Part shown: positions 123 through 49,820 of the stretch, in pieces | Position numbering within the stretch: the stretch's first letter is position 1 | How the letters are laid out: each line of letters opens with the position of its first letter | NCBI GenBank assembly: GCA_964399295.1 | Contig: CAYNQD010000002.1 | Span: 27,859-91,858, forward strand | Reading direction: 5' to 3' | Source: an uncultured Candidatus Saccharibacteria bacterium | GTDB lineage: Bacteria; Patescibacteriota; Minisyncoccia; Phycocordibacterales; UBA918 | Length of the DNA stretch: 64,000 bases | The notes under the pieces: model-generated | Seen by the model: only the letters and a program-made list of their open reading frames with translations | Told to the model about the DNA's origin: nothing | The model's database searches: none | Position numbers and translations under genes: made by a program

Positions 123-1037
123 CTTTCGTTTCGAATGAAACTTTTTATGCACCGCACGCAAATGAGCGTCAGTGACATGAGTATAAATTTGCGTGGTACC
201 AATATTGGCGTGTCCCAAGAGAGATTGCACGGAACGCAAGTCCGCGCCGTTACTTAAAAGATCAGTGGCAAAGCTGTGCCGAATGACGTGCGGAGTAACC
301 TTGCGCGTGATGCCGGCCTTGGCAGCATAATATTTAAAAAGTCTCTGCACCGTGCGCGGAGAAATTCTCGCCTCCTCACCCAGATGCGCTTTTTTTCCAT
401 AGCGAATGAAGAGAGCGCTTTCCATGTCCTTGCGCGCGTCTAAATAATTTTTTATAGCCGCGCGCGCTTCATCAGAAATAAACACCACTCGAATTTTGTC
501 GCCTTTTCCCCTAATAGAAAATTCATCACTCGACAAATCAATATCATCAATGTCCAGAGAACATAGTTCGGAAACGCGCAGTCCGGTTGAAAATAGCAAT
601 TCCAAAATCGCCAGGTCTCGCTTGCCTTTAAGGTTATTCGTTTCCGGAGCATCGAGTAACCTCGTCAATTCGGCCTGCGAAATCAAGTCCAATGACCGTT
701 CTGAGACTTTGGCTAACTCAATTCGCTCAGGAGACATTGATTCTACGTCGCGTTTACGCAAAAATTTGAGAAACGCCCGCAAAGCGACCAGGTAATAATT
801 CTGAGTGCGGCGTTTCATGGTTTCTGTTTTACTACCGATTTTGGCGCCGACTTGTCGATTTAGGTGCAGACGAAATTCCCTCACCAGTGTCTCGGTAATT
901 TGCCCTGGGTTCTCAAGGTGTCCAAAGTCAAAAAATCGGGAAAGGTAGCGGTCGTAGTTTTCCAAGGTCTTGGTGCTCCGCCCTTTCTCAATTTCTAGGT
1001 GCTCCAAAAATTGTCGTTTCAGTTCCTGTAAGTTCAT
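120..1037 (-). CDS. tyrosine site-specific recombinase, XerC/XerD family
   Basis: 305 aa. N-terminal core-binding region (LEHLEIEKGRSTKTLENY). C-terminal catalytic signature HVIRHSFATDLLSNGADLRSVQSLLGHANIGTTQIYTHV with the R..H..R..Y motif. Confidence 0.85.
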   Translation of the reverse strand: MNLQELKRQFLEHLEIEKGRSTKTLENYDRYLSRFFDFGHLENPGQITETLVREFRLHLNRQVGAKIGSKTETMKRRTQNYYLVALRAFLKFLRKRDVESMSPERIELAKVSERSLDLISQAELTRLLDAPETNNLKGKRDLAILELLFSTGLRVSELCSLDIDDIDLSSDEFSIRGKGDKIRVVFISDEARAAIKNYLDARKDMESALFIRYGKKAHLGEEARISPRTVQRLFKYYAAKAGITRKVTPHVIRHSFATDLLSNGADLRSVQSLLGHANIGTTQIYTHVTDAHLRAVHKKFHSKRK

Positions 1038-1214
1038 TACGGTAATTATACAACGCCAAGGACGACTTTTGACAAGCGGCGTAACTTACGGTGAAACTTG
1101 CATTTATCATTTTTTTATGCTATAATCAAAAGAACCTTCGCGGTTATAACCGTGTACTGCTTATAGGCACATTTGTGCGTATCTAATATAAGTAATGCAC
1201 TTCACGCATAAAAT

Positions 1215-8050: not shown

Positions 8051-9037
8051 CTAAAAAGGATTTTTAGCGCCACGAACCTCGAAGTGAAGGTGCGGGCCGG
8101 TGGAGCGGCCGGTGTTTCCCATGGCGCCAATCACCTGACCTTGACCGACGTATTCACCCACTCCCACGCTATTGCTGGAGAGGTGAGCGTACAGAGTTTG
8201 TGCGCCGTTGTTGTGTTTTATAACAATATATTGCCCATAACCGCCATTCCAACCGGAACTCTTAGAAACAATAACTTCACCGGCACCAGCCGCCCTAACA
8301 GAAGAACCATGCGAACCAGCCAAATCAACCGCGTTATAACCATGCAAGCCTTGAGATTTTATAGCACCAGGAGCGGGATGTGTCCAAGCGCCGCCACCAG
8401 CTGAGGTGGAACCTGAGGTCTTGGTGGGAGAGGCCGCGGCTACCGCCGGCGCTGAGTGAATAGCTCCCCCCGGAATAACAACCATTGAGCCTACTTCCAA
8501 ATCATCAGCCGTCGCCAACTGGTTGTAGGCAAGGATTTCTTCAATATCACCTTCATATTTCTTAGCAATTGAACCTACAGTATCACCTTTTTTAACCACA
8601 TGCCGAACTCCCGCGATTGGCAAAATGACCAATGTCTGTCCGGCCCTGATACTGGTGGCTTTAGTGATGTCATTAGCCCACAAAATGGTATTGGCCGTCA
8701 CTCCGTACATGTCGGCAATATGAGACAGTGTGTCTCCTTCCCGAACGGTATAAATACTAATCTCGCCGGATGAGGTGCGATTGGAAGCAATGACATCTTC
8801 ACCCACCGGCCCCGAAGATACCAAAGCGCCGTCATAAGCAAAGACGCTAGCCCCACCCTGATGACCACTAACCAACAGGTCTGGGTTATTGGCAGCTGAT
8901 AGTAAGGAAACATCCGTCGGTAGGGCACTCACCAACGCTTCTGAAGATGGCGAAAATCCATTAGCGGTGGTTGTTGAACTTTCAAAAATACCCGCCTTAA
9001 CCGACAAGGGAATGACGATAACCAAAAAAACAAACAC
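8051..9037 (-). CDS. secreted LysM-domain M23-family metallopeptidase
   Basis: Signal peptide (MFVFLVIVIPLSVKAG). Two LysM repeats (YTVREGDTLSHIADMYGV; HVVKKGDTVGSIAKKYEG). C-terminal M23 signature HLHFEV plus GNTGRSTGPHLH. Confidence 0.85.
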   Translation of the reverse strand: MFVFLVIVIPLSVKAGIFESSTTTANGFSPSSEALVSALPTDVSLLSAANNPDLLVSGHQGGASVFAYDGALVSSGPVGEDVIASNRTSSGEISIYTVREGDTLSHIADMYGVTANTILWANDITKATSIRAGQTLVILPIAGVRHVVKKGDTVGSIAKKYEGDIEEILAYNQLATADDLEVGSMVVIPGGAIHSAPAVAAASPTKTSGSTSAGGGAWTHPAPGAIKSQGLHGYNAVDLAGSHGSSVRAAGAGEVIVSKSSGWNGGYGQYIVIKHNNGAQTLYAHLSSNSVGVGEYVGQGQVIGAMGNTGRSTGPHLHFEVRGAKNPF

Positions 9038-14830: not shown

Positions 14831-17056
14831 ATGCTTAAAATAATACTAAGAAACAAAACTACATATTCACTACTACTGTCGGTAGCCTGTCTCTTGGTGT
14901 TGTTTATACCCATGCTGGCTTTAGGACAAGCAGACGGTGGTGCTGGAAAAAAAACCGAGGACGATTCCCTGATTCAGAATCTGCTTTGGGGACTTGTGAA
15001 TGGGGTTTTTGGTTTTCTCGTTTGGTTGTCCGGCAAGCTACTGGATACCGCCGTGACAACTTTTGTAATCGGCTTTGGAGAATTGTACAACACCAGTGGC
15101 TTAGGTTTTGCGGTAGACAATCTCTGGCGAGTGGTGCGTGACATCTTTAACCTTACCTTTATATTTGGCCTTGTTTACATCGGATTCAAGATGATTCTAA
15201 ACAGCGGAGACACCAACGCCAAAAGGTTGTTAATTAACATTATTATGGCTGCCCTTTTGGTAAACTTCAGTCTGTTCTTTACCAAGTTTATAATTGAATT
15301 CTCAAACGTGGCCGCCACTCAAGTGGCCAGTGCCTTTGATGCTGGCGGTGGGGATTATCAGGTATCTGGTAAGTTTATGAACGCAATGGGTTTATCCAGT
15401 ATATTTGCCGATGACGGCAGTATGACTAACGCTTTTGGCACCAACACCGGAAATGGCTATACTTATATTTTCGGAACTTTATTCTTATTTATTGTGACGG
15501 CCTTTGCCTTTTTTGCCGGCGGTATACTTCTGATGATTAGATTTGCCGTTCTAAATCTATACATGATTTTGTCTCCGATTATGTTTTTAGGTTGGGTATT
15601 TCCTTCTCTGGCCAGCTATTCGGCTACGTATTGGCGCAGTTTCCTAGGCCGTGCTTTCTATGCGCCCGCTTATCTACTGATGCTGTATTTCTGTTTCGTT
15701 GTTTTCAATGAATTTGCTGCTGTAACTAGGTCTGGCAGTCTTTCCAAAGTCCTAACCGATGCCAATAGCGCGCAGTCAGATTTTGCCTCTACCATTCCTT
15801 ATTTTGCTATCATGATTATATTCCTTCTGGCTTCAATTGTGATTGGCCAGAAAATGGGTGCTGAAGGTGGAGCTTACATGGTATCAATGGGTAAAGGCGC
15901 GGCCAGCCGTGGCGGAAGAATGTTAAAGCGAACTGCCGGTGCAGCTACTTTTGGCCTAACAGCCAAAGCTGGACGACAAGTGATTGGAGGCACAGCCAAT
16001 AAGATAGCTGAAAGTAAAGGTCTTCGAGAATGGGCTGCAAAAAGTAAAGCTGGAGAGACACTTCTTAAAGGTACTCGTAGGGTAGCAGATTCTTCTTTTG
16101 ACGCTAGAAAGATTGGTGGCATGGGAACCGCTCTTGGAATTGGTGAGGGAGCCAAGAGTGGTTACGCTACTCAAATTAAAGAGCAGAATAAGGCCGATGA
16201 AGAATTCTCCAATTCACTAACCAGAAAAACTAGGGGCTACGATGGCAAACTTACCGAAGACGCAGCCAAAGCGGTAGATAAAGCCTTAACTGAAGATAAA
16301 GAATTGCAAGGACTAAGAGATTTGCAGGGAACTGCCGATAAGAATATAGAAAACCTCACCACCAAGAAAACAGACACGGAGAAAGAAAAGGCGGAAAAAG
16401 AGACTGCGATAGCAGAAGCTAAGGAAGCTGGGAATACAGAAGCGCAAGAAAATCTTGAAAAAGAACTGTCTCATCTTGATAAAACCCTAACCAATCTAGA
16501 CAAAGACATAGCTAACGCTAATCAAATAAAAGACACTACCGCGAAAAATATTGAAAATCAAGAAAAGAAAATCAGTACCAAAGCCGAGGCGGACTACAAA
16601 TACGCCGATCGAATCGCTTTCCGAGAGCATCGTCGTGAGATAGCTGAATCCTGGAGAAATAGAGGAACGCTTGGAGCCGGCATTGCTGGAGGAGCAGCTG
16701 GAGTAGGAGCAGCCGGTTTGATTGCCAGCACCGCCGGATTAGCCGCTTTACCACTGGCTTTGACAATACTTTCCGGCGCAGCCGTTGGAGGAGCAGCTGG
16801 AGTAGGAGCAGCCAGGGGCTACGCCGAAAGAAACGACCGAAGCGCCATGAACCTCATGCAAAGATACGGACGACAAGGAGAAGATATCGCCAAAGTAGAC
16901 AAGGCCAACAATGACTTAAAAGTCATCCATGACAGGCTAAAAGCTATAGGAGGAGAAGGGGACAAAAAACAAACTTCATCTGACTCCGACAAGCAAACTC
17001 CACCCCCGCCACCACCAAATCCAGGTACAGGTACGGCCTCTACACCAAACCCATAA
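14831..17056 (+). CDS. VirB6/TrbL-like polytopic membrane protein with extended C-terminus
   Basis: 741 aa. About 8 predicted TM helices in the first 340 aa. Then a coiled-coil region (aa 440-570), a Gly/Ala-rich hydrophobic stretch (GIAGGAAGVGAAGLIASTAGLAALPLALTILSGAAVGGAAGVGAA) and a C-terminal PPPPPPNPGTGT tail. Sits three genes upstream of the VirB4-like gene. Confidence 0.45.
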   Translation: MLKIILRNKTTYSLLLSVACLLVLFIPMLALGQADGGAGKKTEDDSLIQNLLWGLVNGVFGFLVWLSGKLLDTAVTTFVIGFGELYNTSGLGFAVDNLWRVVRDIFNLTFIFGLVYIGFKMILNSGDTNAKRLLINIIMAALLVNFSLFFTKFIIEFSNVAATQVASAFDAGGGDYQVSGKFMNAMGLSSIFADDGSMTNAFGTNTGNGYTYIFGTLFLFIVTAFAFFAGGILLMIRFAVLNLYMILSPIMFLGWVFPSLASYSATYWRSFLGRAFYAPAYLLMLYFCFVVFNEFAAVTRSGSLSKVLTDANSAQSDFASTIPYFAIMIIFLLASIVIGQKMGAEGGAYMVSMGKGAASRGGRMLKRTAGAATFGLTAKAGRQVIGGTANKIAESKGLREWAAKSKAGETLLKGTRRVADSSFDARKIGGMGTALGIGEGAKSGYATQIKEQNKADEEFSNSLTRKTRGYDGKLTEDAAKAVDKALTEDKELQGLRDLQGTADKNIENLTTKKTDTEKEKAEKETAIAEAKEAGNTEAQENLEKELSHLDKTLTNLDKDIANANQIKDTTAKNIENQEKKISTKAEADYKYADRIAFREHRREIAESWRNRGTLGAGIAGGAAGVGAAGLIASTAGLAALPLALTILSGAAVGGAAGVGAARGYAERNDRSAMNLMQRYGRQGEDIAKVDKANNDLKVIHDRLKAIGGEGDKKQTSSDSDKQTPPPPPPNPGTGTASTPNP

Positions 17057-17621: not shown

Positions 17622-17650
17622 ACTTTTCGTGCTAAAAGTGTATAATGTAT
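17622..17650 (+). promoter_or_regulatory. candidate extended -10 promoter (tgtataatg) for the VirB3-like/VirB4 genes
   Basis: TGnTATAAT at 17638-17646, about 20 nt upstream of the ATG at 17668. Confidence 0.35.
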
Positions 17651-17667
17651 TTTGTACGCAGACAAAT

Positions 17668-18078
17668 ATGAGATTTGAAGTTCCACAGTTTATTGATATT
17701 GAAGATAAGATTTTTGGGCCTCTTACTTGGCGTCAATTCCTGTACCTAGGAGGCGGAGTAGGTATGGGCGTGGTTTTATTTTTCATAAATAAATTATTGT
17801 TTCTTTTTGTTGGACTGCCGTTGGCTATTTTGGCCGGCGCGCTGGCTTTCTACCCTGTAAACAACCGGCCGTTCTCTTTTTTTCTGGAAGCGATATTCAA
17901 TTACCTAGGCAGCGATAAGCTGTACCTATGGAAACAAAAAGATGAAATTATCCATAAAAACCTTTTTACCCCCAGCACGGTAGGCGGAAATCCTCCAGAA
18001 AGCCCCAGCCGAACAATCAAAAACACCGCCTCGCTCGCTCGTCGCCTGGAATTAGAAGCTATTCAAAAAAAAGAATAA
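17668..18078 (+). CDS. PrgI/VirB3-like small membrane protein
   Basis: 136 aa from the ATG at 17668. Short cytoplasmic N-terminus then two hydrophobic helices (LYLGGGVGMGVVLFFINKLLFLFVGLPLAILAGALAFY). Directly upstream of the VirB4-like gene, as for VirB3-VirB4 pairs. Confidence 0.5.
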   Translation: MRFEVPQFIDIEDKIFGPLTWRQFLYLGGGVGMGVVLFFINKLLFLFVGLPLAILAGALAFYPVNNRPFSFFLEAIFNYLGSDKLYLWKQKDEIIHKNLFTPSTVGGNPPESPSRTIKNTASLARRLELEAIQKKE

Positions 18079-18079
18079 T

Positions 18080-18724
18080 ATGCCAAAATCAACCGCTGCC
18101 ACCCAACAATTTGTCGGTATTCGTGACATTAAAGATGGAATAGTAATTCTGAAATCAGGGCAAATGTGTACCATTCTTTTGGCTTCTTCCGTCAACTTCG
18201 CGCTCAAATCAATTGATGAACAGCAGGCGATTTTGCAGCAATTCCAGACTTTTCTTAACACTCTGGATTTTTCATTGCAGATTTACATTCAATCCCGACG
18301 CTTAAATATCGAGCCCTACATTGAGCTTCTAAAGACCAGAGAGGCCCACCAAGACAATGACCTTATGAGGATTCAGCTTCGCGAATACATTGAATTCATT
18401 CAAACGTTTACCAATGAGGTCGATATCATGAGCAAGAACTTTTTTGTGGTGGTCCCGTATTCTCCGATACCAGTTAATATCACCAAAGGAATAACGTCAC
18501 TGTTTTCCACCGCTCCCAAAACAAACACGCCAACGGAAATGCGTTTTGAAGAGCAGCGCACTCAGCTGGAGCAGAGAGTGGCCGTGGTCGAACAAGGATT
18601 GGGGCGGGTGGGGGTACGCACCACGCCGCTGAAGAACGATGATTTGGTGGAATTATTTTATCATACCTACAACCCGATTGACCCCGCAGGCTCAGCTCCC
18701 ACCTTTAACAAAGCGGACTTCTAA
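18080..18724 (+). CDS. VirB4-like ATPase, N-terminal domain ORF
   Basis: 214 aa. FVGIRDIKDGIVILKSGQMCTILLASSVNFALKSIDEQQAILQQFQTFLNTLDFSLQIYIQS matches the conserved N-terminal domain of Gram-positive-type VirB4/TraC/PrgJ-family ATPases. Ends 10 nt before the next ORF. Confidence 0.65.
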   Translation: MPKSTAATQQFVGIRDIKDGIVILKSGQMCTILLASSVNFALKSIDEQQAILQQFQTFLNTLDFSLQIYIQSRRLNIEPYIELLKTREAHQDNDLMRIQLREYIEFIQTFTNEVDIMSKNFFVVVPYSPIPVNITKGITSLFSTAPKTNTPTEMRFEEQRTQLEQRVAVVEQGLGRVGVRTTPLKNDDLVELFYHTYNPIDPAGSAPTFNKADF

Positions 18725-18734
18725 TACCAAAACC

Positions 18735-20525
18735 ATGAGCATATTTGACCAATTCAAACCGAATAACAACCAAACTCCAAAGATCAGCGATCAGCTCTTG
18801 ACTTTGGTCGACGTGGTGGCTCCTTCCGCCGTCAACATCACTCCACGAGGAATAAATTTAAGCGGGGTTGAGGCTAGAGTACTCTACGCTGTATCTTATC
18901 CTCACTATTTGAATGCCAGCTGGATGGAACCGGTCTTAAACATAGACAAGGAAATTGACGTTTCCATATACATTCACCCCATCGACACTGCTGAGAGCTT
19001 GAAAAAATTTCAAAAAAAAGTAGCTGAGGTGCAAAGCCAGATCAACATAAAAGCTGAGAAAGGCGAGGTTCGTGACCCGCAACTGGAAGCAGCCTACCGC
19101 AACCTGGAAGAACTGCGCGACCGACTACAACAAGCGGAAGAAAAACTTTTTAACGTCGGCTTTTACATTGCCATTTATGGTAATGATGAAAAAACTCTAA
19201 ATAAAGCTGAAAATGATATCAAGGGTATCTTGGACTCCAGACTGATTTACCTTAAGCCGGCTTTGTTTCAACAAGAGCCGGGTATGCAAAGTATTTTCCC
19301 CACGGCTACAGATAAGCTCTTGGTTCACAGCAAATTCAACTCCTCACCGCTATCAAGCTTCTTTCCTTTTACTTCTTTTGACCTCACTTCCGATACCGGT
19401 ATTCTTTATGGTATCAACCGCCACAATTCTTCCTTGGTTTTATTTGATCGTTTTTCTTTGACCAACTACAACTCAGTTACCTTCGCCACTTCCGGTGCTG
19501 GAAAATCTTACGCTCTGAAGCTCGAGATTTTGCGTTCGCTGATGTTTGGTACGGAAGTAATCGTACTTGATCCAGAACGAGAATATGAATATTTGGCCGA
19601 AGCTACCGGTGGACGTTTCTTTAATATTTCTCTGTCTTCAGATCACCACATCAATCCCTTTGACTTGCCACCGCCACAACCAGATGAAGACCCGAGAGAT
19701 GTGCTTCGGACTCATATTATTGAATTGATTGGTTTATTTAGACTGATGCTTGGGGGATTGGCGCCGGAAGAAGAGACTATTCTCGATCTCGCCATTCAGG
19801 AAACTTACGCCTTGCGTGACATCACCGGCGACGCTGATTTTTCAGAACAAGAGCCGCCGCTACTTTCAGACTTTGAGATGGTACTGGCCGGTATGGACGG
19901 CAGCAATTCACTGATTACCCGCCTGCAAAAGTACACTTCCGGTACCTGGTCTGGCTTTATGAACAAGCCCACCAACGTCGATATCAATCAAAAATTCGTG
20001 GTTTTCTCTTTGCGCGACATGGAAGACGAGCTAAAGACCATCGCCATGTACATCATCACCAACTTCATTTGGGGTTCTGTGCGCCGACGCATGACCAAAA
20101 GACTGTTAGTCATTGATGAGGCTTGGTGGATGATGAAATCAGAAGATACGGCTTCATTTTTATTCAGTCTAGCCAAGCGCGGTCGAAAATATTACTTGGG
20201 CATAGCCACCATCACTCAAGACGTGGACGATTTCTTACGCTCTCCCTACGGTGTACCAATGATTACCAACTCCTCAATTCAATTCCTAATGAAACAATCC
20301 GCCACCGCCATTGATAATATTCAAAAAACCTTCAACCTCACCGATGAAGAAAAGTTTTTGCTGCTGGAATCAAACGTAGGGGAGGGGATATTTTTTGCCG
20401 GCCTAAAACACGTAGCCGTAAAAGTAATCGCTTCCTACACTGAAGACCAAATCATCACCTCCGATCCATCACAACTTCTGCAAATCAAGAAAGCCAGAGA
20501 AGAATTGCAACTGTCCCGCTCATAA
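18735..20525 (+). CDS. VirB4/TrbE/CagE-like T4SS ATPase, ATPase domain ORF
   Basis: 596 aa from the ATG at 18735. Walker A FATSGAGKSYALK, Walker B LLVIDEAWWMM, and DPEREYEYL/GIATITQD motifs typical of VirB4-family ATPases. Confidence 0.75.
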   Translation: MSIFDQFKPNNNQTPKISDQLLTLVDVVAPSAVNITPRGINLSGVEARVLYAVSYPHYLNASWMEPVLNIDKEIDVSIYIHPIDTAESLKKFQKKVAEVQSQINIKAEKGEVRDPQLEAAYRNLEELRDRLQQAEEKLFNVGFYIAIYGNDEKTLNKAENDIKGILDSRLIYLKPALFQQEPGMQSIFPTATDKLLVHSKFNSSPLSSFFPFTSFDLTSDTGILYGINRHNSSLVLFDRFSLTNYNSVTFATSGAGKSYALKLEILRSLMFGTEVIVLDPEREYEYLAEATGGRFFNISLSSDHHINPFDLPPPQPDEDPRDVLRTHIIELIGLFRLMLGGLAPEEETILDLAIQETYALRDITGDADFSEQEPPLLSDFEMVLAGMDGSNSLITRLQKYTSGTWSGFMNKPTNVDINQKFVVFSLRDMEDELKTIAMYIITNFIWGSVRRRMTKRLLVIDEAWWMMKSEDTASFLFSLAKRGRKYYLGIATITQDVDDFLRSPYGVPMITNSSIQFLMKQSATAIDNIQKTFNLTDEEKFLLLESNVGEGIFFAGLKHVAVKVIASYTEDQIITSDPSQLLQIKKAREELQLSRS

Positions 20526-20538
20526 ACACCTATAATGT

Positions 20539-21375
20539 ATGGCTACTTATCCAAATTCAAATATACGCAACGTTAAAAAAGTTGACCGCCAAAGAATCAA
20601 TGATGATTGGGAATATTTGGAGGAGCCGGCTTTATCCCACAATCCCAGCACGGATGAACTGTTTAACAAGACCTACAAAAGCAGTGGTTTGCAAGCCACC
20701 ACCTCTTCCAATATCAGAAATCCTAAAAAAATTAACTCGGAGGCAGGAAACGATGCTACAACAAACACCTACAAAGCAAAATCATCTTACGGTCAAACAT
20801 ATAATGATTTTGATAGTTATGACGACGATTATGGACCGAAAGCAAAAGATAAAAAAGTAAAGATACCTGGCGGAAGAACTTCACCAATTCTTAGACTGAA
20901 AGCCAATATAGAAGCTTCCCGGATTATATTTTGGGTGGGTCAAAAATATATAATGCTCCAACTTCCTTTCGCGATTTTATCGATAATCGGTCTGGGAGCA
21001 TCACTTTACCTGTCGGGAGATTTTAGTAATTCCGGCAATTCCACGAGTACTGGTTTGGTTGATAGTGCCGTGAGCGCTGTGGTTGGTGCCACCGACATCG
21101 TCGTTAGGGGAGTAGCCAATTTCTTTGGAGCTGGTTATTTAACTTTTGCGCTATTTGCCATTCCTCACATGTTTGTTCTCTCCCTAGGAATTTTTGTCCT
21201 TATGACTGTTTATATTCAGTTTACAATGAAATCAATAAAACCCCTATCCGGCGACCACGCCAGCGCAAAGATAGGAACTTTCCTCCTAGCGATACTAGGC
21301 TTCGCCATTCCCATATTAAATTTATTTCCCATTATTTTATTCTGGATATTCACAGTTAGGAAATACCCAAAATAG
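20539..21375 (+). CDS. hypothetical membrane protein (disordered N-terminus, four C-terminal TM helices)
   Basis: 278 aa. The hydrophobic C-terminal half was read directly. Confidence 0.45.
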   Translation: MATYPNSNIRNVKKVDRQRINDDWEYLEEPALSHNPSTDELFNKTYKSSGLQATTSSNIRNPKKINSEAGNDATTNTYKAKSSYGQTYNDFDSYDDDYGPKAKDKKVKIPGGRTSPILRLKANIEASRIIFWVGQKYIMLQLPFAILSIIGLGASLYLSGDFSNSGNSTSTGLVDSAVSAVVGATDIVVRGVANFFGAGYLTFALFAIPHMFVLSLGIFVLMTVYIQFTMKSIKPLSGDHASAKIGTFLLAILGFAIPILNLFPIILFWIFTVRKYPK

Positions 21376-21422
21376 GTGGTTAAGGTGGTTTTTTTGGATT
21401 TTAGTTTGTTATTATAATAACC

Positions 21423-22379
21423 ATGAGATACTTTATATTAATTTTAGTCGCATTAATGCCTTTAGATTTTTCTAGTGCCCAGATTAGTTCTGAGCCCGGA
21501 CAAATGGGAGTGAGTATAGTTTTGGAAAACGACAATATTAAACCCTTCTCCGCCAACACCGCTTCTTTGGACAATTACTCTCTATCACTTCAAGTTACCA
21601 ACATCAGCTGGAAAATTGACGGCCGAACAATCCCTGAAGCCCAAAATCAAAGGTCTGTTGAATTCACTTCTAAAGACGTCGGTCAGACTACCACTATTGA
21701 AGTGACAGTTGAAACTTTTGAAAAACTCAACTTCTCAGCCAAAAGGATCGTTACACCCATCTATTTGGACATAATATTTGAACCCCAAACCAAAACCCCA
21801 AGTTTTTACAAAGGTCGAGCATTGCCTAGTATTTTTAGCACCGTAAATTTAACCGCCTTGGTCAACGGCACTCCAGACAATGCTAATAATTACATTTACA
21901 ACTGGTCACTAAATGACACCAATATCACCGGCGGTGCTTTGCGAGGAAAGTATAAAGTATCAACCGAAGTACCGGCCGGCTACCAAAACGTCATTGTCCT
22001 GTCTGTCAGCACTCTTGATGGCATACCAGTCGCCAGTCGCAGCTTGGCTCTTAGTTCCGTGGAGCCAAAATTATTATTTTATGAAACCAACACTCTGCAC
22101 GGAATCAAAAACATCCCCATCAGAGATTCCCTAAACCTAATCGGCAACAGCGTTAGCGTCAAAGCTGAGCCTTATTACATAGATATAAACACCTACAATA
22201 AGCCCGGGCTTTTGGAGTGGAAAGTTGATGGCATCAGAAGCCCGAGCAGCGGAAACAATCCTTACGAAGTAACGTTGTCTAAGCAAGGACTAAACGGAGT
22301 ATCTAATGTTAATTTTCACGTCCGAAATTTAAACAACTTTATACAAGGAACCCAAGGTAGCTTTAAGGTAAATTTTTAA
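21423..22379 (+). CDS. hypothetical secreted protein
   Basis: 318 aa. Signal peptide MRYFILILVALMPLDFSSAQ. Beta-rich, with two internally similar segments. Confidence 0.45.
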   Translation: MRYFILILVALMPLDFSSAQISSEPGQMGVSIVLENDNIKPFSANTASLDNYSLSLQVTNISWKIDGRTIPEAQNQRSVEFTSKDVGQTTTIEVTVETFEKLNFSAKRIVTPIYLDIIFEPQTKTPSFYKGRALPSIFSTVNLTALVNGTPDNANNYIYNWSLNDTNITGGALRGKYKVSTEVPAGYQNVIVLSVSTLDGIPVASRSLALSSVEPKLLFYETNTLHGIKNIPIRDSLNLIGNSVSVKAEPYYIDINTYNKPGLLEWKVDGIRSPSSGNNPYEVTLSKQGLNGVSNVNFHVRNLNNFIQGTQGSFKVNF

Positions 22380-22385
22380 AAATAT

Positions 22386-23564
22386 ATGAATAAGCCAATT
22401 TTTATCATTATCGGAGCAATCATTATTTTTATATTGGTTTTGGTTTGGGCGTATTTAATGTTTTTTGGCACCCCCAAAAACATGCAGGATATTTTTGCTG
22501 ATTTAAATTTTCAAGAAAACTTAGAGGATGTCTCTATTAATGTTGTTACTGAGGATACTGTCGTTAATGTAAACAGGCCAGCCCTACGCCAACTAACCAC
22601 CAGACTGGTAGCGGGCTTTCGTGAAATAGACGCACCACCAACCGCCGATTTACCAACAATATACTACACAGAAATGGGAACCGGACATATTTACGCCATC
22701 AATCTTGAGTCTGGCGAAGAAACGAGAATATCAGGTACCACGGTTGTCGGTGTCAACAGCGCTTCCATTTCACCAAAAGGTGATTACGTGGCTTACGGCA
22801 TTGCCAATAGCAGCAAAAACATTAAGCTACTACTTGGAGAAATTAGCACCAGCAGTGATTTGGTGGCGGAAGAAATCAGCACTACTATTGATAAATTTTG
22901 GATCAATGACAACGGTAATGAATTGCTTTACACCACCAGGGAAGAAATTGGTTTGGTGGCATATTCATACAACCTAGCCAATTCCACCAAGAGAAATGTC
23001 TTTTCATTACCTTATCACGAAGCGTTGATACAGTGGGGAAGCACGGCCACGGCAGCGCATTATGTTTATCCAAAGCCAGCTTATTTATTTGAGGGTTATT
23101 TATCCGAAATAACCGGCAATAAAATTAAGCGTTTGCCGGTTGATGGCTACGGATTTTCCGGTTTGGCCAACAAAGATATCGTGGCGTACAGCACTTTGGA
23201 CAGACAGGATGTTAAGAGCTACATCTACAACAAAACCAACAACACCCACAACCCATTCCCTCTACAAATTAATTTTATGCCAGAAAAGTGTATTATCTCT
23301 AAAAATAACAACAACCTAATCTGCGCCTACGACACCACCGCCAAAATGGCTGAATTCCCCGACAGCTGGTATCAGGGGGTGACTAGTTTTAAAGATTCGT
23401 TGTGGCTGGTTTCTGGAGATGCTCTGTCGGCCCAATTCCTAGTGGACACTTTCACCGCCAGCAATCGCGAGATTGATATTACCGATTTAAGCATTGGCAG
23501 CAGCGAACGAGCGGTTTATTTTATAAACAAAAACGATAACACTCTTTGGATGTATGAATTATAA
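22386..23564 (+). CDS. hypothetical secreted/signal-anchored protein
   Basis: 392 aa. N-terminal TM IFIIIGAIIIFILVLVWAYLMFF. Confidence 0.45.
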   Translation: MNKPIFIIIGAIIIFILVLVWAYLMFFGTPKNMQDIFADLNFQENLEDVSINVVTEDTVVNVNRPALRQLTTRLVAGFREIDAPPTADLPTIYYTEMGTGHIYAINLESGEETRISGTTVVGVNSASISPKGDYVAYGIANSSKNIKLLLGEISTSSDLVAEEISTTIDKFWINDNGNELLYTTREEIGLVAYSYNLANSTKRNVFSLPYHEALIQWGSTATAAHYVYPKPAYLFEGYLSEITGNKIKRLPVDGYGFSGLANKDIVAYSTLDRQDVKSYIYNKTNNTHNPFPLQINFMPEKCIISKNNNNLICAYDTTAKMAEFPDSWYQGVTSFKDSLWLVSGDALSAQFLVDTFTASNREIDITDLSIGSSERAVYFINKNDNTLWMYEL

Positions 23565-24261
23565 AACTTTACTACTATTTATAATTTTAGTCGCTCCGCT
23601 GTCGGCTTTGGCTCAGGGTTATGTGTCACTAGTTTCTATTCCTGGAGTTAGCGATCCGACAGGTGGGGGTTTTAACGACTACATAAACGCCCTCTACGTG
23701 CTGTCTATCAGTATTGCCGCCTTATTGGCTGTTATCAAGATAATCATCGCCGGCGTAAAGTGGATGTTGTCTGATGTCGTGACCAGCAAGCAAGAAGCTA
23801 AAAGTGACATCTGGGGAGCCACCATCGGCTTACTAGTCGTTATCTCGGCGGTTTTGGTACTAAATGTAATCAACCCACAGCTAATAGAGTCAGATATCGT
23901 ATTTACCAAGCCACACGAATTCCAATCACAGTCACCTACATTTAGCAAAACTCGGCCTGCTCTGAGCCCTGGTGATACAGAGACAGTTATGAAACTCGAA
24001 GACCATCAGAAGTGTGTACATGATATACAGGGAGAATGGTACGTAGAAACAGATGGTCTTAATAATTACCAATATTGGTGTATTAAAAAAGCCAATAAAG
24101 CTTTCTTGAACCCTGAGCAGTTTGCTTGCAACGCCACAACTCAGACCTGTGACTCTAACGACAAGTTTGCCTGTGAAAGTAATTTCAACGGTATATGGGA
24201 ATATCCTTATATAACTGATATGGGAACTGCACAATACTATAGGGCTAAGTGTGTTTATTAA
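23554..24261 (+). CDS. VirB2/TrbC-topology pilin-like protein with cysteine-rich C-terminal domain
   Basis: 235 aa. Signal peptide (..PLSALAQG) then two hydrophobic helices separated by a charged loop (..LLAVIKIIIAGVKWMLSDVVTSKQEAKSDIWGATIGLLVVISAVLVLNVINP), which is the classic T4SS pilin topology. C-terminal about 110 aa contains 8 Cys. Confidence 0.45.
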   Translation: MNYKTLLLFIILVAPLSALAQGYVSLVSIPGVSDPTGGGFNDYINALYVLSISIAALLAVIKIIIAGVKWMLSDVVTSKQEAKSDIWGATIGLLVVISAVLVLNVINPQLIESDIVFTKPHEFQSQSPTFSKTRPALSPGDTETVMKLEDHQKCVHDIQGEWYVETDGLNNYQYWCIKKANKAFLNPEQFACNATTQTCDSNDKFACESNFNGIWEYPYITDMGTAQYYRAKCVY

Positions 24262-24278: not shown

Positions 24279-24317
24279 ACCAAAAGCCCCGCGCCTTAGG
24301 CGCGGGGCTTTTGGTGT
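24279..24317. terminator. bidirectional GC-rich hairpin terminator (caccaaaagccccgcgcc-ttag-gcgcggggcttttggtg)
   Basis: Lies between convergent stops of the pilin-like gene and yidC. Confidence 0.7.
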
Positions 24318-24352: not shown

Positions 24353-25087
24353 CTAACGATGATGTTTTTTGATGTGTAGTTCTTGCAAGATGGCCACGAT
24401 ATTACTGACAAAAAAGTAAAGGGCGATGGCGGCGGAAATGAAATAAGAAACAAAGAAAATTATCACCGGCATAACATAACGCATTTGCAATTGCATGTTA
24501 CGCATAAAGTCTTCCTTTAAGTCCGGAGCCTTATTTGGATCTCTGGGCGGTAAAGCCGGCATAGCGAGCTTTACCTGATAATACTGAGTCACTCCAGCCA
24601 ACAGCGCCAAAAAAACACTCTTGCCGGAAATATCAATCAAACCAAGAAAATCCATACTCACCATACCAGGTGCGGCCAAGAATGAGTACAAGAGGGCAGT
24701 GTTGATTTCCGGCAAAGCCACACCGCCGCCACTATAAACCGAAAAGTACAGCGCGATGATGATTGGTATTTGCAACAACATCAAAAATATAGTGGAAAAA
24801 GGCTTGATGCCGGATTCGCGATAAAGCTGCATCATTGCTAAGGCTTGTTGTTCGCGGTTGTCTTTGTGGGTTTCTTTTATTTCTTTTAGCTTTGGCTCGA
24901 TCTCACGCATCACACGCTGCGTGCGTGCGGACTTTATGGAAAGAGGGAGCAATATCAGCTTCAATACCACCACCATGGCAATGATAGCCAGACCAACATC
25001 TCCACCAGGAATAACTTCGATAAAAAATATCAACCCGTTATAAACCGGGTCGAAAAAAAATGTATGCCAAATATAATTCATGTCCAC
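24353..25087 (-). CDS. yidC: membrane protein insertase YidC (short form)
   Basis: 244 aa, 5 TM, conserved YidC/Oxa1 core. Canonical position downstream of rnpA. Confidence 0.8.
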   Translation of the reverse strand: MDMNYIWHTFFFDPVYNGLIFFIEVIPGGDVGLAIIAMVVVLKLILLPLSIKSARTQRVMREIEPKLKEIKETHKDNREQQALAMMQLYRESGIKPFSTIFLMLLQIPIIIALYFSVYSGGGVALPEINTALLYSFLAAPGMVSMDFLGLIDISGKSVFLALLAGVTQYYQVKLAMPALPPRDPNKAPDLKEDFMRNMQLQMRYVMPVIIFFVSYFISAAIALYFFVSNIVAILQELHIKKHHR

Positions 25088-25097
25088 TATTTTACCT

Positions 25098-25421
25098 TTA
25101 TTTTAATATCAGTCCAATTTCTTGTTCAAGAACAGCTAATAATTCTCTTTTGGTTAAATTTTTAATGTTGGGTTTGGCAATAACAATATAAACACCGGTT
25201 GTCTCCCCAGTCTTCAAACGACGCACCACCTCGTAAATACGTCTTTTTAAGCGATTTCTGTCGTACGCCTTTTTATAAACCTTTTTTCCCACCACCACCG
25301 CGCACAAAAACTGATCGTTTGGCGTAAATATCGTTGTGGTATAAGGATTATTTATTCTCTTGCCTTGTTTATAAAACTTGGAAAATAAAGAGGAGTTTAG
25401 ACGCTGCGCTTTTTTAAACAT
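25098..25421 (-). CDS. rnpA: ribonuclease P protein component
   Basis: 107 aa, basic, LNSSLFSKFYKQGKRINNPYTT...VGKKVYKKAYDRNRLKRRIYE is an RnpA-like pattern. Lies between rpmH and yidC. Confidence 0.8.
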   Translation of the reverse strand: MFKKAQRLNSSLFSKFYKQGKRINNPYTTTIFTPNDQFLCAVVVGKKVYKKAYDRNRLKRRIYEVVRRLKTGETTGVYIVIAKPNIKNLTKRELLAVLEQEIGLILK

Positions 25422-25855: not shown

Positions 25856-25964
25856 GTTGCGTTTTTTGATTTTTAAAAAAACCATACTTTTGGCAGTTTT
25901 TTAGAAAAAAATTTTACAGCTTCCAGAATGCGGGTATAATTCCTTGTATCTCTCTTTCATTGTT

Positions 25965-27350
25965 ATGAACCAAATTTCACATCCGCAACCAACCAACAGT
26001 ATAGTTCGCACCGAACATATTGATATAAAAAAATTATGGGATGACGCGTTGGTAAAAATTGAGCTTTCTATCACCCCAGCCAATTTCAAAACTTGGTTTC
26101 GTGATACTTATATTTTGACACTAGAAGACGGAACGATAAATTTGGCTGTACCGAGCGTTTTTGTGCGCGATTGGCTGCAAGATAAGTTTCAATCAATGAT
26201 TCTTAAAACTCTTCGCGATTTAACCCCCTACGTTCGCAGTGTTGAATACGAGGTTGTCCAGCGCACCGACAGAAGAACCGAGGGCAGCAAAACCCAGACC
26301 ATCAACGCGGCGTTGCCCTTAGAAGAATACTACATAAATAAAAGCGATAATTTAAATCCAAAATATTCTTTTGAAACTTTTGTGATTGGCCCGTACAACG
26401 CCCTGGCTCATACTGCCGCCAAAACCGTTAGCGAAAGGCCGGGAATTGCTTATAATCCGCTGTTTATTTACGGAAAAACCGGACATGGAAAGACCCACTT
26501 AATCCAAGCGGTTGGCAATCAGGTAAAAAAAACCGGCAAGAAAGTTTTTTACGTTACCAGTGAAAGATTTGCTGTAGACTACTTCAATTCTCTCCAAAGC
26601 GGAACCGCCAATAATTTTAAAGACAAATATCGGCAGTACGATGTTTTAATCATGGACGATGTTCAATTTTTGGCCAGCAAGGAAAAAACTCAAGAGGAAT
26701 TATTCCATCTTTTCAACGCCCTGCACGACACCAACAAACAGATTGTTTTCTCTAGCGATATACATCCAGCACTATTATCCGGACTGGAAGAAAGGCTACT
26801 GTCACGTTTTGCTCAAGGCATGATTGTAGATATTCCAGCACCGGATTTGGAATCCAGAGCGGCCATTTTAAAGGCTAAGGCGGCTCAAAACAGCATTACC
26901 TTATCTGACGATGTAGTTAATCATTTAGCCTACACCATTGAAGGCAATATTCGCGAACTGGAGGGGGCACTAAACACCATCATGTGCCAATCGCAACTCA
27001 TGGGCAAAACTCTGTCTCTGGATGAAGTGAAATCAATTATAAAAAATAGCTCCAAACCGAGAAAAACTTTAGCGGTTTCAGATGTAGTTGATAAGGTGGC
27101 TCGTTATTTTGACATTGACCAAGCCAGCATTTACGAAAAAACCAGACGAAAAGAAATTGTAAGGCCGAGGCAGATTATAATGTATATTTTGCGCGAGGAT
27201 TTTCAAGTTTCGTATCCAGCTATCGGTAAAAAACTAGGTGGCCGCGATCACACTACCGTCATCCATTCGTGTGAAAAAATCAAACTGGAATTAAAATCGA
27301 ATTCTGATCTGGAGGAGGAAATTACGCAAATTAGAATGCTTCTTAAGTAA
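25965..27350 (+). CDS. dnaA: chromosomal replication initiator protein DnaA
   Basis: Walker A GKTGHGKTHL, sensor/box VII, and C-terminal DNA-binding domain (QIIMYILREDF...IGKKLGGRDHTTVIHSCEKI). Start at the ATG at 25965, downstream of the -10 element. Confidence 0.92.
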   Translation: MNQISHPQPTNSIVRTEHIDIKKLWDDALVKIELSITPANFKTWFRDTYILTLEDGTINLAVPSVFVRDWLQDKFQSMILKTLRDLTPYVRSVEYEVVQRTDRRTEGSKTQTINAALPLEEYYINKSDNLNPKYSFETFVIGPYNALAHTAAKTVSERPGIAYNPLFIYGKTGHGKTHLIQAVGNQVKKTGKKVFYVTSERFAVDYFNSLQSGTANNFKDKYRQYDVLIMDDVQFLASKEKTQEELFHLFNALHDTNKQIVFSSDIHPALLSGLEERLLSRFAQGMIVDIPAPDLESRAAILKAKAAQNSITLSDDVVNHLAYTIEGNIRELEGALNTIMCQSQLMGKTLSLDEVKSIIKNSSKPRKTLAVSDVVDKVARYFDIDQASIYEKTRRKEIVRPRQIIMYILREDFQVSYPAIGKKLGGRDHTTVIHSCEKIKLELKSNSDLEEEITQIRMLLK

Positions 27351-36588: not shown

Positions 36589-38358
36589 TTATAAGTCTGC
36601 GGTGTGTTTAAGAAAAATATCGTCATCTTTTTTATCGGCCGACGATTCTTCCTGGGCTGACACTGTCGGGTGGGGTAATTCGACTACTCGCTCCAGTTCC
36701 TCAAGTGAAGTTATTCCGCGTACTACTTTTTCAATACCATCTTCTATCATGGTGGGGATTCCTTGCGGTTTGGCGGCTTCTAGTATGGTGTGTTCACGGG
36801 GGTCTCTGATGACCGCTTCTTCTACTGCTTCATCCATCAAAATCGCTTCAAATATTCCCACACGGCCGTTGTAGCCGGTCATCCCGCAGTTGGTACAGCC
36901 TTTGGCTCGGTAGAGTTGAAGCGGTTCTTTGATTTCCGGTTTGGCCGGATGGTTTTTTAATATATTTTTTATCAAAAATATTTCATTCTCGCTGGCTTGG
37001 TAGGATTGTCTGCAATTTAAGCAAAGTTTTCGCGTCAATCTTTGTCCCATCATTATGTTGACGGCGCTGCCGATTATTCTTGGGTCAATTCCCAAGTCAA
37101 TCAAACGCGGGAAGCCACCCACGGCGTTGTTTGTGTGAAGGGTAGAGAATACCAAGTGACCGGTTTGCGCGGCGTGGATGGCGGTTTCGGCCACTTCATG
37201 ATCGCGAATCTCACCAATCATGATAATGTCGGGGTCTTGACGCAAGATGGCGCGCAGTCCGGAAGCAAAGGTGTAATCGTCTCCGGTCTGGGTTTGGACG
37301 ATACCGTCAAGTTTGTATTCCACCGGATTTTCAATGGTAATAATTTTCACTCCTTCTTTGTGGGCTTCCTTGAGAAAAGTATAGAGAGCGGTGGTTTTTC
37401 CGGAGCCGGTGGGGCCGGTGGTTATGATTAGTCCGTTTGGTTTTTTTATTTCTTGAACAACTACTCTCTTGAGAATCGGATTGAGGTCGATATTTTCAAG
37501 CGCAAAGGTGGCGATGCTGGGATCAAGCAGACGCATTACCATAGACTCACCGGCAGCGCCTGGTATCACTGAAACACGCACTTCAATCTCGCGATCAATC
37601 ACGACAAAAGTAAATCTACCGTCCTGCGCCTCCAGTCTTTTGTTTAGAGCCATGCCGGCCAATAATTTCAATCTGGACATCAGGCGGTCGTAGATGTAGC
37701 GGTCTATATCGTAAATATCATGCAATACTCCGTCAAGACGATAACGTATTCTAACCACAAATTCTTCCGGCTCAATGTGGATGTCGGAAGCGGAAAGGCT
37801 GATTGCTCCGGCAAACAACATCTCAATGGTTTCGGTGACGCGGCGGGAATTGTTTATGGTCGCGATTTTGTTTAGTTCATTGATGGCGTCTTCTTTATTT
37901 TTTATATTACTCATAAACTTGGCAATATCTTCGGTGTCGATATCAAAAACTCCTTTTTTACGAGCAGAAGATTCTATTAGGTCGGCATATCTGGCCCAGG
38001 CATGTTCCAAGCTGCTGGAAGAACACATATAAACCTGGATATTTTGCCGGTCGTTTTGTATTTCGGATAAGGCGCTTAGGGTAATGGGGTCGTTTGGGTT
38101 TTTGACCGCTATGGAAATGAGATTGTGGGTAAAATCAAATATTACCAATTTCGCCTCCCGGGCTTTGGCCTCAGGATAGAGAGCTACCGCTTCCGGATTG
38201 ATGGTGTAGCCATGAAGATTGATGTAATCAAAACCGTATTGTGGTGCCAGGGTTTGAATCAATTTCTCCTCTTCGCTTTTTCTTAAATCGTCAATCCTAA
38301 CGTTAGAAAATTCATCGTTGAATTTAATCATACTGGAAAAAGTATAGCATGGTCCCAA
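36589..38358 (-). CDS. pilB: type IV pilus assembly ATPase PilB (GspE family)
   Basis: 589 aa. N-terminal GspII_E_N domain, Walker A ITTGPTGSGKTT, Asp box and His box, tetracysteine CLNC...CTNC. Confidence 0.85.
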   Translation of the reverse strand: MGPCYTFSSMIKFNDEFSNVRIDDLRKSEEEKLIQTLAPQYGFDYINLHGYTINPEAVALYPEAKAREAKLVIFDFTHNLISIAVKNPNDPITLSALSEIQNDRQNIQVYMCSSSSLEHAWARYADLIESSARKKGVFDIDTEDIAKFMSNIKNKEDAINELNKIATINNSRRVTETIEMLFAGAISLSASDIHIEPEEFVVRIRYRLDGVLHDIYDIDRYIYDRLMSRLKLLAGMALNKRLEAQDGRFTFVVIDREIEVRVSVIPGAAGESMVMRLLDPSIATFALENIDLNPILKRVVVQEIKKPNGLIITTGPTGSGKTTALYTFLKEAHKEGVKIITIENPVEYKLDGIVQTQTGDDYTFASGLRAILRQDPDIIMIGEIRDHEVAETAIHAAQTGHLVFSTLHTNNAVGGFPRLIDLGIDPRIIGSAVNIMMGQRLTRKLCLNCRQSYQASENEIFLIKNILKNHPAKPEIKEPLQLYRAKGCTNCGMTGYNGRVGIFEAILMDEAVEEAVIRDPREHTILEAAKPQGIPTMIEDGIEKVVRGITSLEELERVVELPHPTVSAQEESSADKKDDDIFLKHTADL

Positions 38359-42458: not shown

Positions 42459-43163
42459 GTGATGTCGAATTTACTGCAAAGAGCTTTTGTTGATAATCGA
42501 GACCGATTATTTTTCTTGGTCAATGACGCTTTGGCAATAATCACTATTATTTCCATAATCACGCTGGTACTGGAAACAGTTCCGTCTTTGGAAAAATATT
42601 CAACCTGGTTTTTGATTATCGAATGGGTGACGGTGGTATTTTTTCTGGCGGAGTATGTCGGCCGCTTGTACGTGGCTACGCCAAAACGCAAGTATGCGCT
42701 TAGTTTTTTGGGAATAATTGATTTGGTGGCTATTTTACCGACTATTCTTGGACTCGGTAATTTCACTTTTTTGAAATCTGCTCGCGCGGTGCGGTTAATC
42801 CGACTTTTGCGAATGTTTAGATTATTAAAAATTACCCGCATGCCAAAGGGTACTGATCCGGAAGAATCACTGGGCGTTTTTGGATTTAATATTTTGATTT
42901 ATTTCGTTGTGCTACTTTTTGGTTTATTGGTTACCGGTACTTTGATTTATTTGGCAGAATCATTGGCGGAAAGTATACCAGCTGGTATGTTGTGGTCTTT
43001 GAAAATATTTATGGGTATTACGGTGACTGAGCCACAGGCCGGAGTGGGAATGGTGATTTTTGTCATCACCAAATTCATCGGTCTTTTACTACTCGGCCTC
43101 TTGGTGGGAGTGGTTGGCAATGTATTTAATTGGCTGCTTTTGGGAGGCAAAAAAGTGGTATAG
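42459..43163 (+). CDS. voltage-gated ion channel family protein (Ion_trans)
   Basis: S4-like arginine repeat ARAVRLIRLLRMFRLLK, multiple TM segments, and a pore-like segment. Confidence 0.55.
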   Translation: MMSNLLQRAFVDNRDRLFFLVNDALAIITIISIITLVLETVPSLEKYSTWFLIIEWVTVVFFLAEYVGRLYVATPKRKYALSFLGIIDLVAILPTILGLGNFTFLKSARAVRLIRLLRMFRLLKITRMPKGTDPEESLGVFGFNILIYFVVLLFGLLVTGTLIYLAESLAESIPAGMLWSLKIFMGITVTEPQAGVGMVIFVITKFIGLLLLGLLVGVVGNVFNWLLLGGKKVV

Positions 43164-49103: not shown

Positions 49104-49820
49104 TTATTTCTTAGTAAAGACAACCAGGCCGGAATCATCACGCAAAAGTAGTACCAAATCACCGTCTTCGGTAAATACAAAGTGTGAAGTGTTGGCAATC
49201 ATGCCTGAAAACTCTGCTTCCTGTGAACCTTCGCAGTACATCATGGTCGAGGCTAGTGGCCCGAAAGTGATGGTTTTTTCAGCTTCTACGGTGTAGCCGC
49301 CGCTAAAACCATTACAATCTGTTTTTCCATAAACTCGCCCTGCTGCGGGATCAAAGGTCAAAGTAAACGCACCAGCCTCATTGGGGGTGATCACTTCATC
49401 GTCATTCATTTGAGTCTCTTGCCAAACCCACTCATGGTCGGACAAGCCGGTTTCATCCAAAGTGACAGACGCTTCTACTTCTGTACTACCAACAAACAAT
49501 CGCTCCTCGCCCATAGAGAGACTTATCTCATCGCCTTTATTCCACAGTTCCAAGCCAGTTTCTTCGTTGACATAGCGTGCTCCAGAAGCAGAAATTGCCT
49601 GTGTAAAGACTAGGTCAACGTAATCAAGTCCGTTTAGGGTCGCGGTCTCGTCTTCGTTATTAAAAGTGACGGTGATGGCTTCACCATTATCTGCGTTGGT
49701 AAAGGTAAACGCCGCTGGGGTTGTTTCGGGTGCTATTTGTTTATCTTCCGCGCGGTCTCTGGTTATCCAAACAACCGCTACTAAAACCACTAGGGCTAAA
49801 ATTATAATTTTTATTTTCAT
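49104..49820 (-). CDS. secreted META-domain (HslJ-like) protein
   Basis: Signal/TM N-terminus. C-terminal GKTDCNGFSGGYTVEAEKTITFGPLASTMMYCEG pattern is typical of META/HslJ domains. Confidence 0.55.
   Translation of the reverse strand: MKIKIIILALVVLVAVVWITRDRAEDKQIAPETTPAAFTFTNADNGEAITVTFNNEDETATLNGLDYVDLVFTQAISASGARYVNEETGLELWNKGDEISLSMGEERLFVGSTEVEASVTLDETGLSDHEWVWQETQMNDDEVITPNEAGAFTLTFDPAAGRVYGKTDCNGFSGGYTVEAEKTITFGPLASTMMYCEGSQEAEFSGMIANTSHFVFTEDGDLVLLLRDDSGLVVFTKK

Follow-up and report, generated by a model that had tools for sequence, protein, structure and literature searches.

A 64,000-nucleotide stretch of DNA from an uncultured Candidatus Saccharibacteria bacterium (contig CAYNQD010000002.1; hereafter, the window) contains a gene for a VirB2-like pilin of a type IV secretion system (T4SS), prolonged at its C terminus by a cysteine-rich domain that we call the head. 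On balance, we read the product as a VirB2-type pilin of the chromosomal, origin-proximal T4SS of a Paceibacteria-type bacterium, equipped with a variable, oxidatively folded surface head. Its membership in PF18895, the T4SS pilin family of the Candidate Phyla Radiation (CPR), is strongly supported. The C-terminal extension is the rule in the Paceibacteria-type lineage, not an oddity of one gene, and the interesting unit is the whole extended-pilin family rather than the window gene alone. The locus and its VirB2-like pilins were known; what is new is the even cysteine parity, the invariance of the cysteines in a subfamily, the fast-evolving head without Pfam, PDB or viral fold relatives and its modular build. 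In the literature that we searched, which left most subscription journals outside its scope so that a prior description is possible, neither the even-cysteine hypervariable head nor its near-universality in Paceibacteria-type loci is mentioned.

The pilin and its C-terminal extension

The protein divides as follows, according to hydropathy and an AlphaFold2 (AF2) model whose local confidence is given as predicted local distance difference test (pLDDT) scores.

23554..24261, + strand: whole open reading frame (ORF), ATG to stop, 235 amino acids (aa) plus stop; VirB2-like T4SS pilin with a C-terminal cysteine-rich domain
23554..23616, + strand: Sec-type signal peptide, aa 1-21, MNYKTLLLFIILVAPLSALA, followed by QG (hydropathy; putative AxA cleavage site)
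23617..23679, + strand: mature N-terminal segment, aa 22-42, acidic, with a conserved LVxIPGVxDP...(F)NxYIN motif; predicted outside the cell
23680..23769, + strand: hydrophobic helix 1, aa 43-72, YINALYVLSISIAALLAVIKIIIAGVKWML (hydropathy; AF2 helix 39-73); core of the PF18895 match
23770..23808, + strand: short charged loop, aa 73-85, SDVVTSKQEAKSD (K+R enrichment, AF2); predicted cytoplasmic while in the membrane
23809..23883, + strand: hydrophobic helix 2, aa 86-110 (hydropathy; AF2 helix 79-106)
23884..23973, + strand: flexible linker, aa 111-140, 47% P/S/T/Q; AF2 pLDDT <50 at aa 113-127
23974..24093, + strand: head module A, aa 141-180, predicted beta-alpha-beta-beta; AF2 pLDDT 91-96 (head modelled alone)
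24094..24258, + strand: head module B, aa 181-235, predicted alpha/beta, pLDDT ~58-76; invariant cysteines 192, 199, 207 and 233

An earlier note on this DNA had proposed a signal peptide followed by two hydrophobic helices and an intervening charged loop, an arrangement borne out by hydropathy, the AF2 model and the distribution of lysine and arginine (K+R). The first hydrophobic stretch (aa 1-29) is signal-peptide-like by hydropathy and ends in LSALA before QG, and small residues are kept at positions -3 and -1 of the cleavage site in an alignment of 19 sequences. Kyte-Doolittle windows of both helices peak at 2.5-2.6, and the charged loop between them, KWMLSDVVTSKQEAKSD, measures 13-17 aa. 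A database search with the window protein returned 367 homologues, the best 120 of which underlie the homologue statistics given here. The loop (aa 69-85) averages 3.2 K+R, versus 0.4 in the mature N-terminal segment, where D+E average 2.1, and 1.0 after helix 2. This distribution matches the positive-inside pattern that would be expected of a hairpin with both termini out and the loop in; in a VirB2-type filament, the loop (aa 73-85) would then face the lumen. The hairpin core is 65-98% identical among homologues, with K62, G67 and D74 invariant. K62 (23737..23739) stands in the middle of helix 1 (AVIKIII) and is a lysine in all 120 homologues; by analogy with the basic residues of conjugative pili, it could contact lipid headgroups or neighboring subunits.

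PF18895 (T4SS_pilin) matches aa 40-106 of the window protein at E=1.4e-5, over profile positions 5-71 of 71. The same family is matched by 117 of the 120 homologues (E<=0.01), TrbC/VirB2 (PF04956) weakly by 35 and DUF4134 by 24; the window protein itself has no PF04956 match at E<=0.01. Named homologues belong to Candidatus Paceibacterota, Nomurabacteria, Kaiserbacteria and Parcubacteria. These matches and the conserved T4SS operon support the VirB2/TrbC-type arrangement that the note had recognized. The pilin-like protein of Mollicutes integrative and conjugative elements (NF045849, Mbov_0395 family) gives a weak match (E=1e-3, aa 42-107, 18.8 bits against a cut-off of 40); it is also a small two-helix pilin-like protein of a monoderm T4SS but, at ~80 aa, has no C-terminal domain.

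The canonical pilins VirB2 (Ti plasmid), TrbC (RP4) and TraA (F) likewise consist of two hydrophobic helices around a short basic loop, preceded by a signal peptide, and are likewise encoded beside VirB3, VirB4 and VirB6 homologues. The window protein differs from VirB2 and TrbC in having no significant homology to them and in its 125-aa extension after helix 2. Unlike the canonical pilins, it shows no evident cyclisation or maturation peptidase, and its host is monoderm-like whereas theirs are diderm. Canonical mature pilins are ~70-80 aa long and are not known to carry an extra domain.

The cysteine-rich continuation reported in the note is real, but longer than the ~110 aa given there: the tail after helix 2 comprises 125 aa, namely ~30 aa of linker and ~95 aa that AF2 predicts to be folded. 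In the model, the helical hairpin leads into a disordered linker and then, from about aa 141, into a folded alpha/beta region. Both the length and the sequence of the linker differ among homologues, and the median length beyond helix 2 is 139 aa in the best 120. A second sample consists of 50 species loci from Paceibacteria-type, species-representative GTDB genomes. The extensions of the ORFs at these loci range from 2 to 358 aa (median 150); they reach at least 65 aa in 47 of the 50, two loci have truly short pilins and one (L050) is cut at the pilin gene. The two short pilins, at L032 (5923..6297) and L049 (5962..6330), are 119-122 aa long, free of cysteine and located at the same operon position, with ~100-140 nucleotides (nt) between them and yidC. 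They indicate that the core suffices by itself and that the head is an optional extra.

The note had considered that a separate cysteine-rich gene might have been fused here by a sequencing error. That a short pilin and such a gene were joined by sequencing or assembly, or that the tail is a chance ORF, has a practically negligible probability: nothing speaks in its favor, contigs of three separate sequencing runs (at least three independent assemblies) hold the identical 235-aa ORF, and a continuous ORF with an extension is present in the 47 loci and in nearly all of the best 120 homologues. We also searched for homologues of the C-terminal domain alone, as the note had suggested, by running a head-only profile exhaustively against 1.84 billion representative proteins. 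It returned 15 matches and no stand-alone head gene: 14 are fused to a pilin, with the match beginning at aa 128-145. Because the profile finds almost only pilin-fused copies, the head is not a free-standing gene joined by error. A query with the C-terminal domain in a word-indexed protein database gave no candidates, which reflects the sensitivity limit of that method.

A weak head-profile match (E=7e-4, four stretches) was obtained with P0122, a lipoprotein-like non-pilin of 326 aa with repeats of the form CxxxGGTWTDDxxDxYYCxCP. Its repeats suggest that the C-x3-GG-x-W...C unit may be a general small disulfide module outside pilins.

Cysteines, modules and divergence of the head

The tail contains six cysteines, at aa 154, 176, 192, 199, 207 and 233, and not the eight previously claimed; the fragments quoted in the note also hold six. 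Cysteine accounts for 4.9% of the tail, versus 0.57% in the long ORFs of the window. A subfamily of 19 members keeps all six without exception, at ~24% identity over the rest of the head. Furthermore, the number of cysteines in the extension is even in 53 of 53 ORF matches in the species genomes (0, 2, 4, 6, 8, 10, 12, 16 or 18) and in 118 of the 120 homologues, and the N-terminal 110 aa are free of cysteine in 100 of these. Such parity is hard to explain without paired, oxidized cysteines, which argues that the tail lies outside the cytoplasm and lends independent support to the signal-peptide-plus-two-helix, termini-out topology. The patterns strongly support the presence of disulfides in the head and, likewise, export of the protein with its C terminus outside. 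The cysteine-rich part would therefore be a genuine extracytoplasmic domain, as the note had proposed, given the even counts and the identical ORF in independent assemblies.

The head looks like two related alpha/beta modules, each stapled by disulfides. In the model, the helix of module A holds C154 and its final strand C176, both invariant, within a C-x3-5-GG-x-W...C motif. The second helix of the head, in module B, holds C207 and the last strand C233, with C192 and C199 ahead of that helix. Using hhalign, module A aligns with the core of module B (C207 helix to C233 strand) at P=4.5e-5, pairing xxC-x3-5-GG-x-W. Homologues with two cysteines (L027, L041, P0030) are made up of a single unit of the module A kind, extra module copies occur in P0006 and P0025, and multi-module homologues have 10-18 cysteines. 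On the strength of the module relatedness and the one-module homologues, the cysteines most probably pair 154-176, 192-199 and 207-233.

An iterated hidden Markov model (HMM) of module B reaches 78 of 172 family members. The members outside it carry other cysteine-containing domains, such as a ~190-aa type with four cysteines and an RFQTxHYPR motif. Foldseek comparisons of the C-domain and of the full-length model with the PDB, and with BFVD, gave nothing below E ~0.8; the top matches, to a KH domain and a brazzein-like protein, were dismissed as noise (TM 0.2-0.4). Pfam, searched at E<=1 with the C-domain and the long homologues, yielded no family for any extension.

The head is the fastest-evolving part of the locus. 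Median identities to the window proteins across the species loci are listed below, p278, p318 and p392 being operon genes presented in the next section.

DnaA: 85%
VirB4: 84%
YidC: 66%
Pilin core: 65%
p318: 38%
p392: 37%
p278: 27.5%
Pilin head: tblastn match at E<1e-3 in 0 of 50 loci

Within the 19-member subfamily the core is 74% identical, versus 24% for the head. BLAST sorts the extensions of 162 family members into 43 clusters, and the window protein is in the largest, with 71 members. A head cluster is shared by 99% of the pairs whose cores are at least 90% identical and by 73% of those at 80-90%. Frequent swapping of head cassettes among close relatives is thus unsupported; as similar cores tend to bear heads of one type, the pattern is better explained by very rapid vertical divergence, with a head replaced now and then. 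The diversity of heads agrees with a preprint in which PF18895 dominates freshwater-specific structure clusters, with 69 clusters (10.1101/2025.04.23.650224).

The disordered linker between hairpin and head would be a plausible protease site, and the heads fold as independent units whose copy number varies. RP4 TrbC is C-terminally processed and VirB2 is cyclised, and by analogy the head could be a pro-domain or released factor, cleaved at maturation and then discarded or secreted as an effector, toxin or signal, the hairpin serving as its export and anchoring vehicle. The acidity of the head (isoelectric point 4.7) would suit this proposal, small acidic cysteine-rich secreted domains being typical of effectors, as would the head-less pilins functioning at the same locus in L032 and L049. 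We nevertheless consider cleavage improbable: no TraF/S26-like maturation peptidase or other protease family is found among the operon genes, the linker, variable in length and sequence, holds no conserved cleavage motif, and a domain fused to a pilin in 14 of 15 profile matches does not circulate as a free secreted protein. A head retained on a VirB2-type pilin remains our preferred reading.

The origin-proximal T4SS locus

The pilin gene is the last of a forward-strand T4SS operon, which lies next to genes flanking the replication origin.

14831..17056, + strand: multi-pass membrane protein, VirB6/TrbL-like (by position)
17629..18078, + strand: PrgI family, VirB3-like (PF12666, E=1.7e-10)
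18080..18724, + strand: TrsD/TraC-like protein, resembling the VirB4 N-terminal domain as a separate gene (NF041427, NF045975; PF26593 in orthologues)
18735..20525, + strand: VirB4-like ATPase (PF19044 at 1e-26, AAA_10); ATG start at 18735 inferred from 597-aa orthologues
20539..23564, + strand: three conserved uncharacterised genes, p278, p318 and p392 (278, 318 and 392 aa), syntenic in ~50 genomes
24353..25087, - strand: yidC, flank of the replication origin
25098..25421, - strand: rnpA, flank of the replication origin
25944..27350, + strand: dnaA, flank of the replication origin, with dnaN beyond and ksgA upstream of the operon

The VirB6/TrbL-like protein of the window has no Pfam match, and its orthologues at L004 and L005, the loci of two full-length homologues in NCBI genomes, weakly match PF19590 (TrbL_3). 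A separate gene for a protein like the VirB4 N-terminal domain is also found in other monoderm T4SSs. We considered a frameshift in virB4, whose longest ORF, from 18639, overlaps trsD by 86 nt; the in-frame ATG at 18735 gives 596 aa, against 597 in orthologues, and the frameshift was rejected. VirB4 is as conserved as DnaA (84% versus 85%, in ~45 species-representative genomes), a degree of conservation that is unusual for a gene of a secretion system and in keeping with an essential, housekeeping-like function.

No Pfam or NCBIfam family was found for p278, p318 or p392. The first has a C-terminal region with several transmembrane (TM) segments, the second a signal peptide, and the third an N-terminal TM segment and a faint match to the TolB beta-propeller (E=0.011). 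The start of the pilin gene overlaps the stop of p392 by 11 nt in the window, at L004 and at L005. A terminator-like site 3' of the pilin gene (24293..24308) is no better than expected from shuffled sequence. The order PrgI-TrsD-VirB4-p278-p318-p392-pilin, followed by yidC on the reverse strand and then dnaA, recurs in nearly all of the 50 species loci and is the same at L004 and L005. No relaxase or coupling protein was seen among the operon genes scanned, a trait in common with the published Patescibacteria T4SS.

This type of locus is already known, and that of the window matches the published Patescibacteria T4SS, which lies near dnaA and the replication origin and encodes VirB2-like pilins (Quinonero-Coronel et al. 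2025, PMC12102498; PMC10633639). Those loci share with the window PrgI/VirB3, TrsD, VirB4 and a VirB6-like protein, with dnaA, rnpA and ksgA nearby, and their PF18895 pilins (in Southlakia epibionticum, PMC10633639, and in the survey of PMC12102498) belong to the same hairpin family. In S. epibionticum, the pilins of the T4SS cluster are essential (Wang et al. 2023, PMC10633639). The published pilins are small, and in Saccharimonadia and Microgenomatia above all they often form arrays of 2-11 divergent paralogues (PMC12102498, PMC10633639). By contrast, the window has a single pilin gene in 64 kb, and its variability is concentrated in the fused cysteine-rich head.

Several other genes deserve mention. 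At L005 (Nomurabacteria, CP060227), a thioredoxin-family gene (665..1159, - strand) stands immediately upstream of the T4SS cluster; none was seen in the window. Its product may be the folding oxidoreductase of the cysteine-rich pilin head. About 3 kb upstream of its T4SS operon, the window carries a gene (8051..9037, - strand) for a LysM plus M23 peptidase, and a cell-wall hydrolase of the LysM/M23 kind has been proposed to replace VirB1 in Patescibacteria (PMC12102498). The window also encodes a protein with MliC (lysozyme-inhibitor) and META domains (49104..49820, - strand) and a small channel of the Ion_trans family (42459..43163, + strand), both unusual accessories for such a reduced genome.

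Proposed assembly and display of the head

F and T pili expose both termini on their outer surface, and the loop lines the lumen. The pathway that we consider most likely would begin with entry of the precursor into the membrane through Sec/YidC and its cleavage by signal peptidase I after ALA21, as the sequence suggests. The hairpin would then sit in the membrane with its lysine-rich loop in the cytoplasm and both termini outside, a topology supported by the charge distribution and the disulfide evidence. Outside the cell, the ~95-aa head, borne on its ~30-aa flexible linker, would fold into two alpha/beta modules with three disulfides, perhaps oxidized by machinery of the MdbA/VKOR type; an MdbA-like oxidoreductase and VKOR are reported to be enriched in the CPR (PMC6744442). 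By analogy with other T4SSs, VirB4 and the VirB3- and VirB6-like proteins would extract the hairpin and polymerize it into a pilus or a wall-spanning conduit. Should its termini face outward, as those of F and T pilins do, head domains would cover the filament. Since the core of the machine is highly conserved while the head evolves extremely fast, the head would most likely be the contact surface for a host cell or another external partner.

Several observations weigh against this proposal. At the level of the family, the window protein scores 25.6 bits against PF18895, below the gathering cut-off of 26.6; the homologues P0006 (29.1 bits) and P0071 (31.8 bits) exceed it. The PF04956 matches of the 35 homologues are at best E=1.7e-4 and all fall under the 27.9-bit cut-off, hhalign gives a probability of 17% for A. 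fabrum VirB2, and sequence-profile searches of the PDB found no solved pilin, only spurious matches. A weak echo is seen in the hhalign alignment, where LAVIKIIIAGVKWMLSD pairs with LAVLGIVAIGISWMFGR of VirB2 at an equivalent topological position. Given these weak direct ties to characterized pilins, we file the protein under the CPR pilin family and not under canonical VirB2/TrbC. As for the head, the short pilins of L032 and L049 mean that it is not needed for basic function, and a search of the 64-kb window for an oxidoreductase gene, including thioredoxin/DsbA-type CxxC motifs, found nothing relevant. Because no recognizable binding fold was found in it, an adhesive role is purely inferred. 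The geometry is demanding as well: a rough packing estimate based on F-pilus geometry gives ~6-9 nm2 of surface per subunit. Packing one head of ~10-14 kDa per subunit on a VirB2-type filament might thus be hard, and borderline even with the linker, but not impossible. Finally, a T4SS pilus has yet to be observed in any member of the Patescibacteria, a review calling it an "intriguing possibility" (PMC12857230; see also PMC12102498), and monoderm T4SSs normally have no pili (PMC12102498, PMC12857230, PMC10633639).

The general absence of pili from monoderm T4SSs (PMC12102498, PMC10633639) would suit a membrane-anchored component of the surface or channel, or a short T4SS collar, whose tethered head binds peptidoglycan or the S-layer or docks onto p318 or p392. 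The ~30-aa flexible linker suits a tether, the 11-nt overlap with p392, predicted to be TM-anchored and extracellular, suggests stoichiometric co-production, and p278, p318 and p392 evolve fast too (27-38% identity), as co-evolving partners might. We regard this alternative as rather doubtful, since the very strong conservation of the hairpin (65-98%, with K62, G67 and D74 invariant) is more in keeping with a polymer subunit that packs against itself than with a simple anchor, the matches of the family are to pilin models and not to anchor families, and an internal docking partner would not obviously drive the heads into 43 clusters. A polymerizing pilin with an exposed head is the likelier reading in our view.

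The design recalls type IV pilins, which, in the type IV pilus (T4P) and the type II secretion system (T2SS), also combine a conserved hydrophobic polymerization module with a variable globular head that is stabilized by a disulfide near the C terminus and exposed on the filament surface. Fold and biogenesis are unrelated, and the likeness is an analogy only. The protein is not itself a type IV pilin: its signal peptide is of type I (AxA) and lacks a class III site (G before F/M-x-x-x-E), its TM helices number two where type IV pilins have one, and its gene sits in a T4SS operon, not a T4P operon. At a distance of 12 kb from the T4SS locus, the window encodes a PilB/T2SSE-type ATPase that includes an MshEN domain (36589..38358, - strand), which indicates that the genome also has type IV pilus machinery. 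As a tentative extension of the analogy, we propose that the VirB2-type pilin of Paceibacteria might have independently evolved the conserved stalk and variable disulfide-bonded head of type IV pilins. Hypervariable heads would coat the filament or conduit and set host docking or the drawing of resources, an end that Saccharimonadia and Microgenomatia would reach through their arrays of divergent short pilins.

Cultures are lacking for most Patescibacteria. Among T4SSs, theirs alone has been shown to be essential for the growth of its bearer (PMC10633639, PMC12857230). The ~95-aa head is a tractable soluble domain for binding, antibody or structural work, for which the natural head-less variants L032 and L049 are useful controls. 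The extended pilins would be the first class of the VirB2 family with an appended globular domain, and they bear on how much decoration the lattice of a conjugative-type pilus tolerates. The head is a concrete, testable candidate for the determinant of specificity or host contact in an essential and poorly understood machine.

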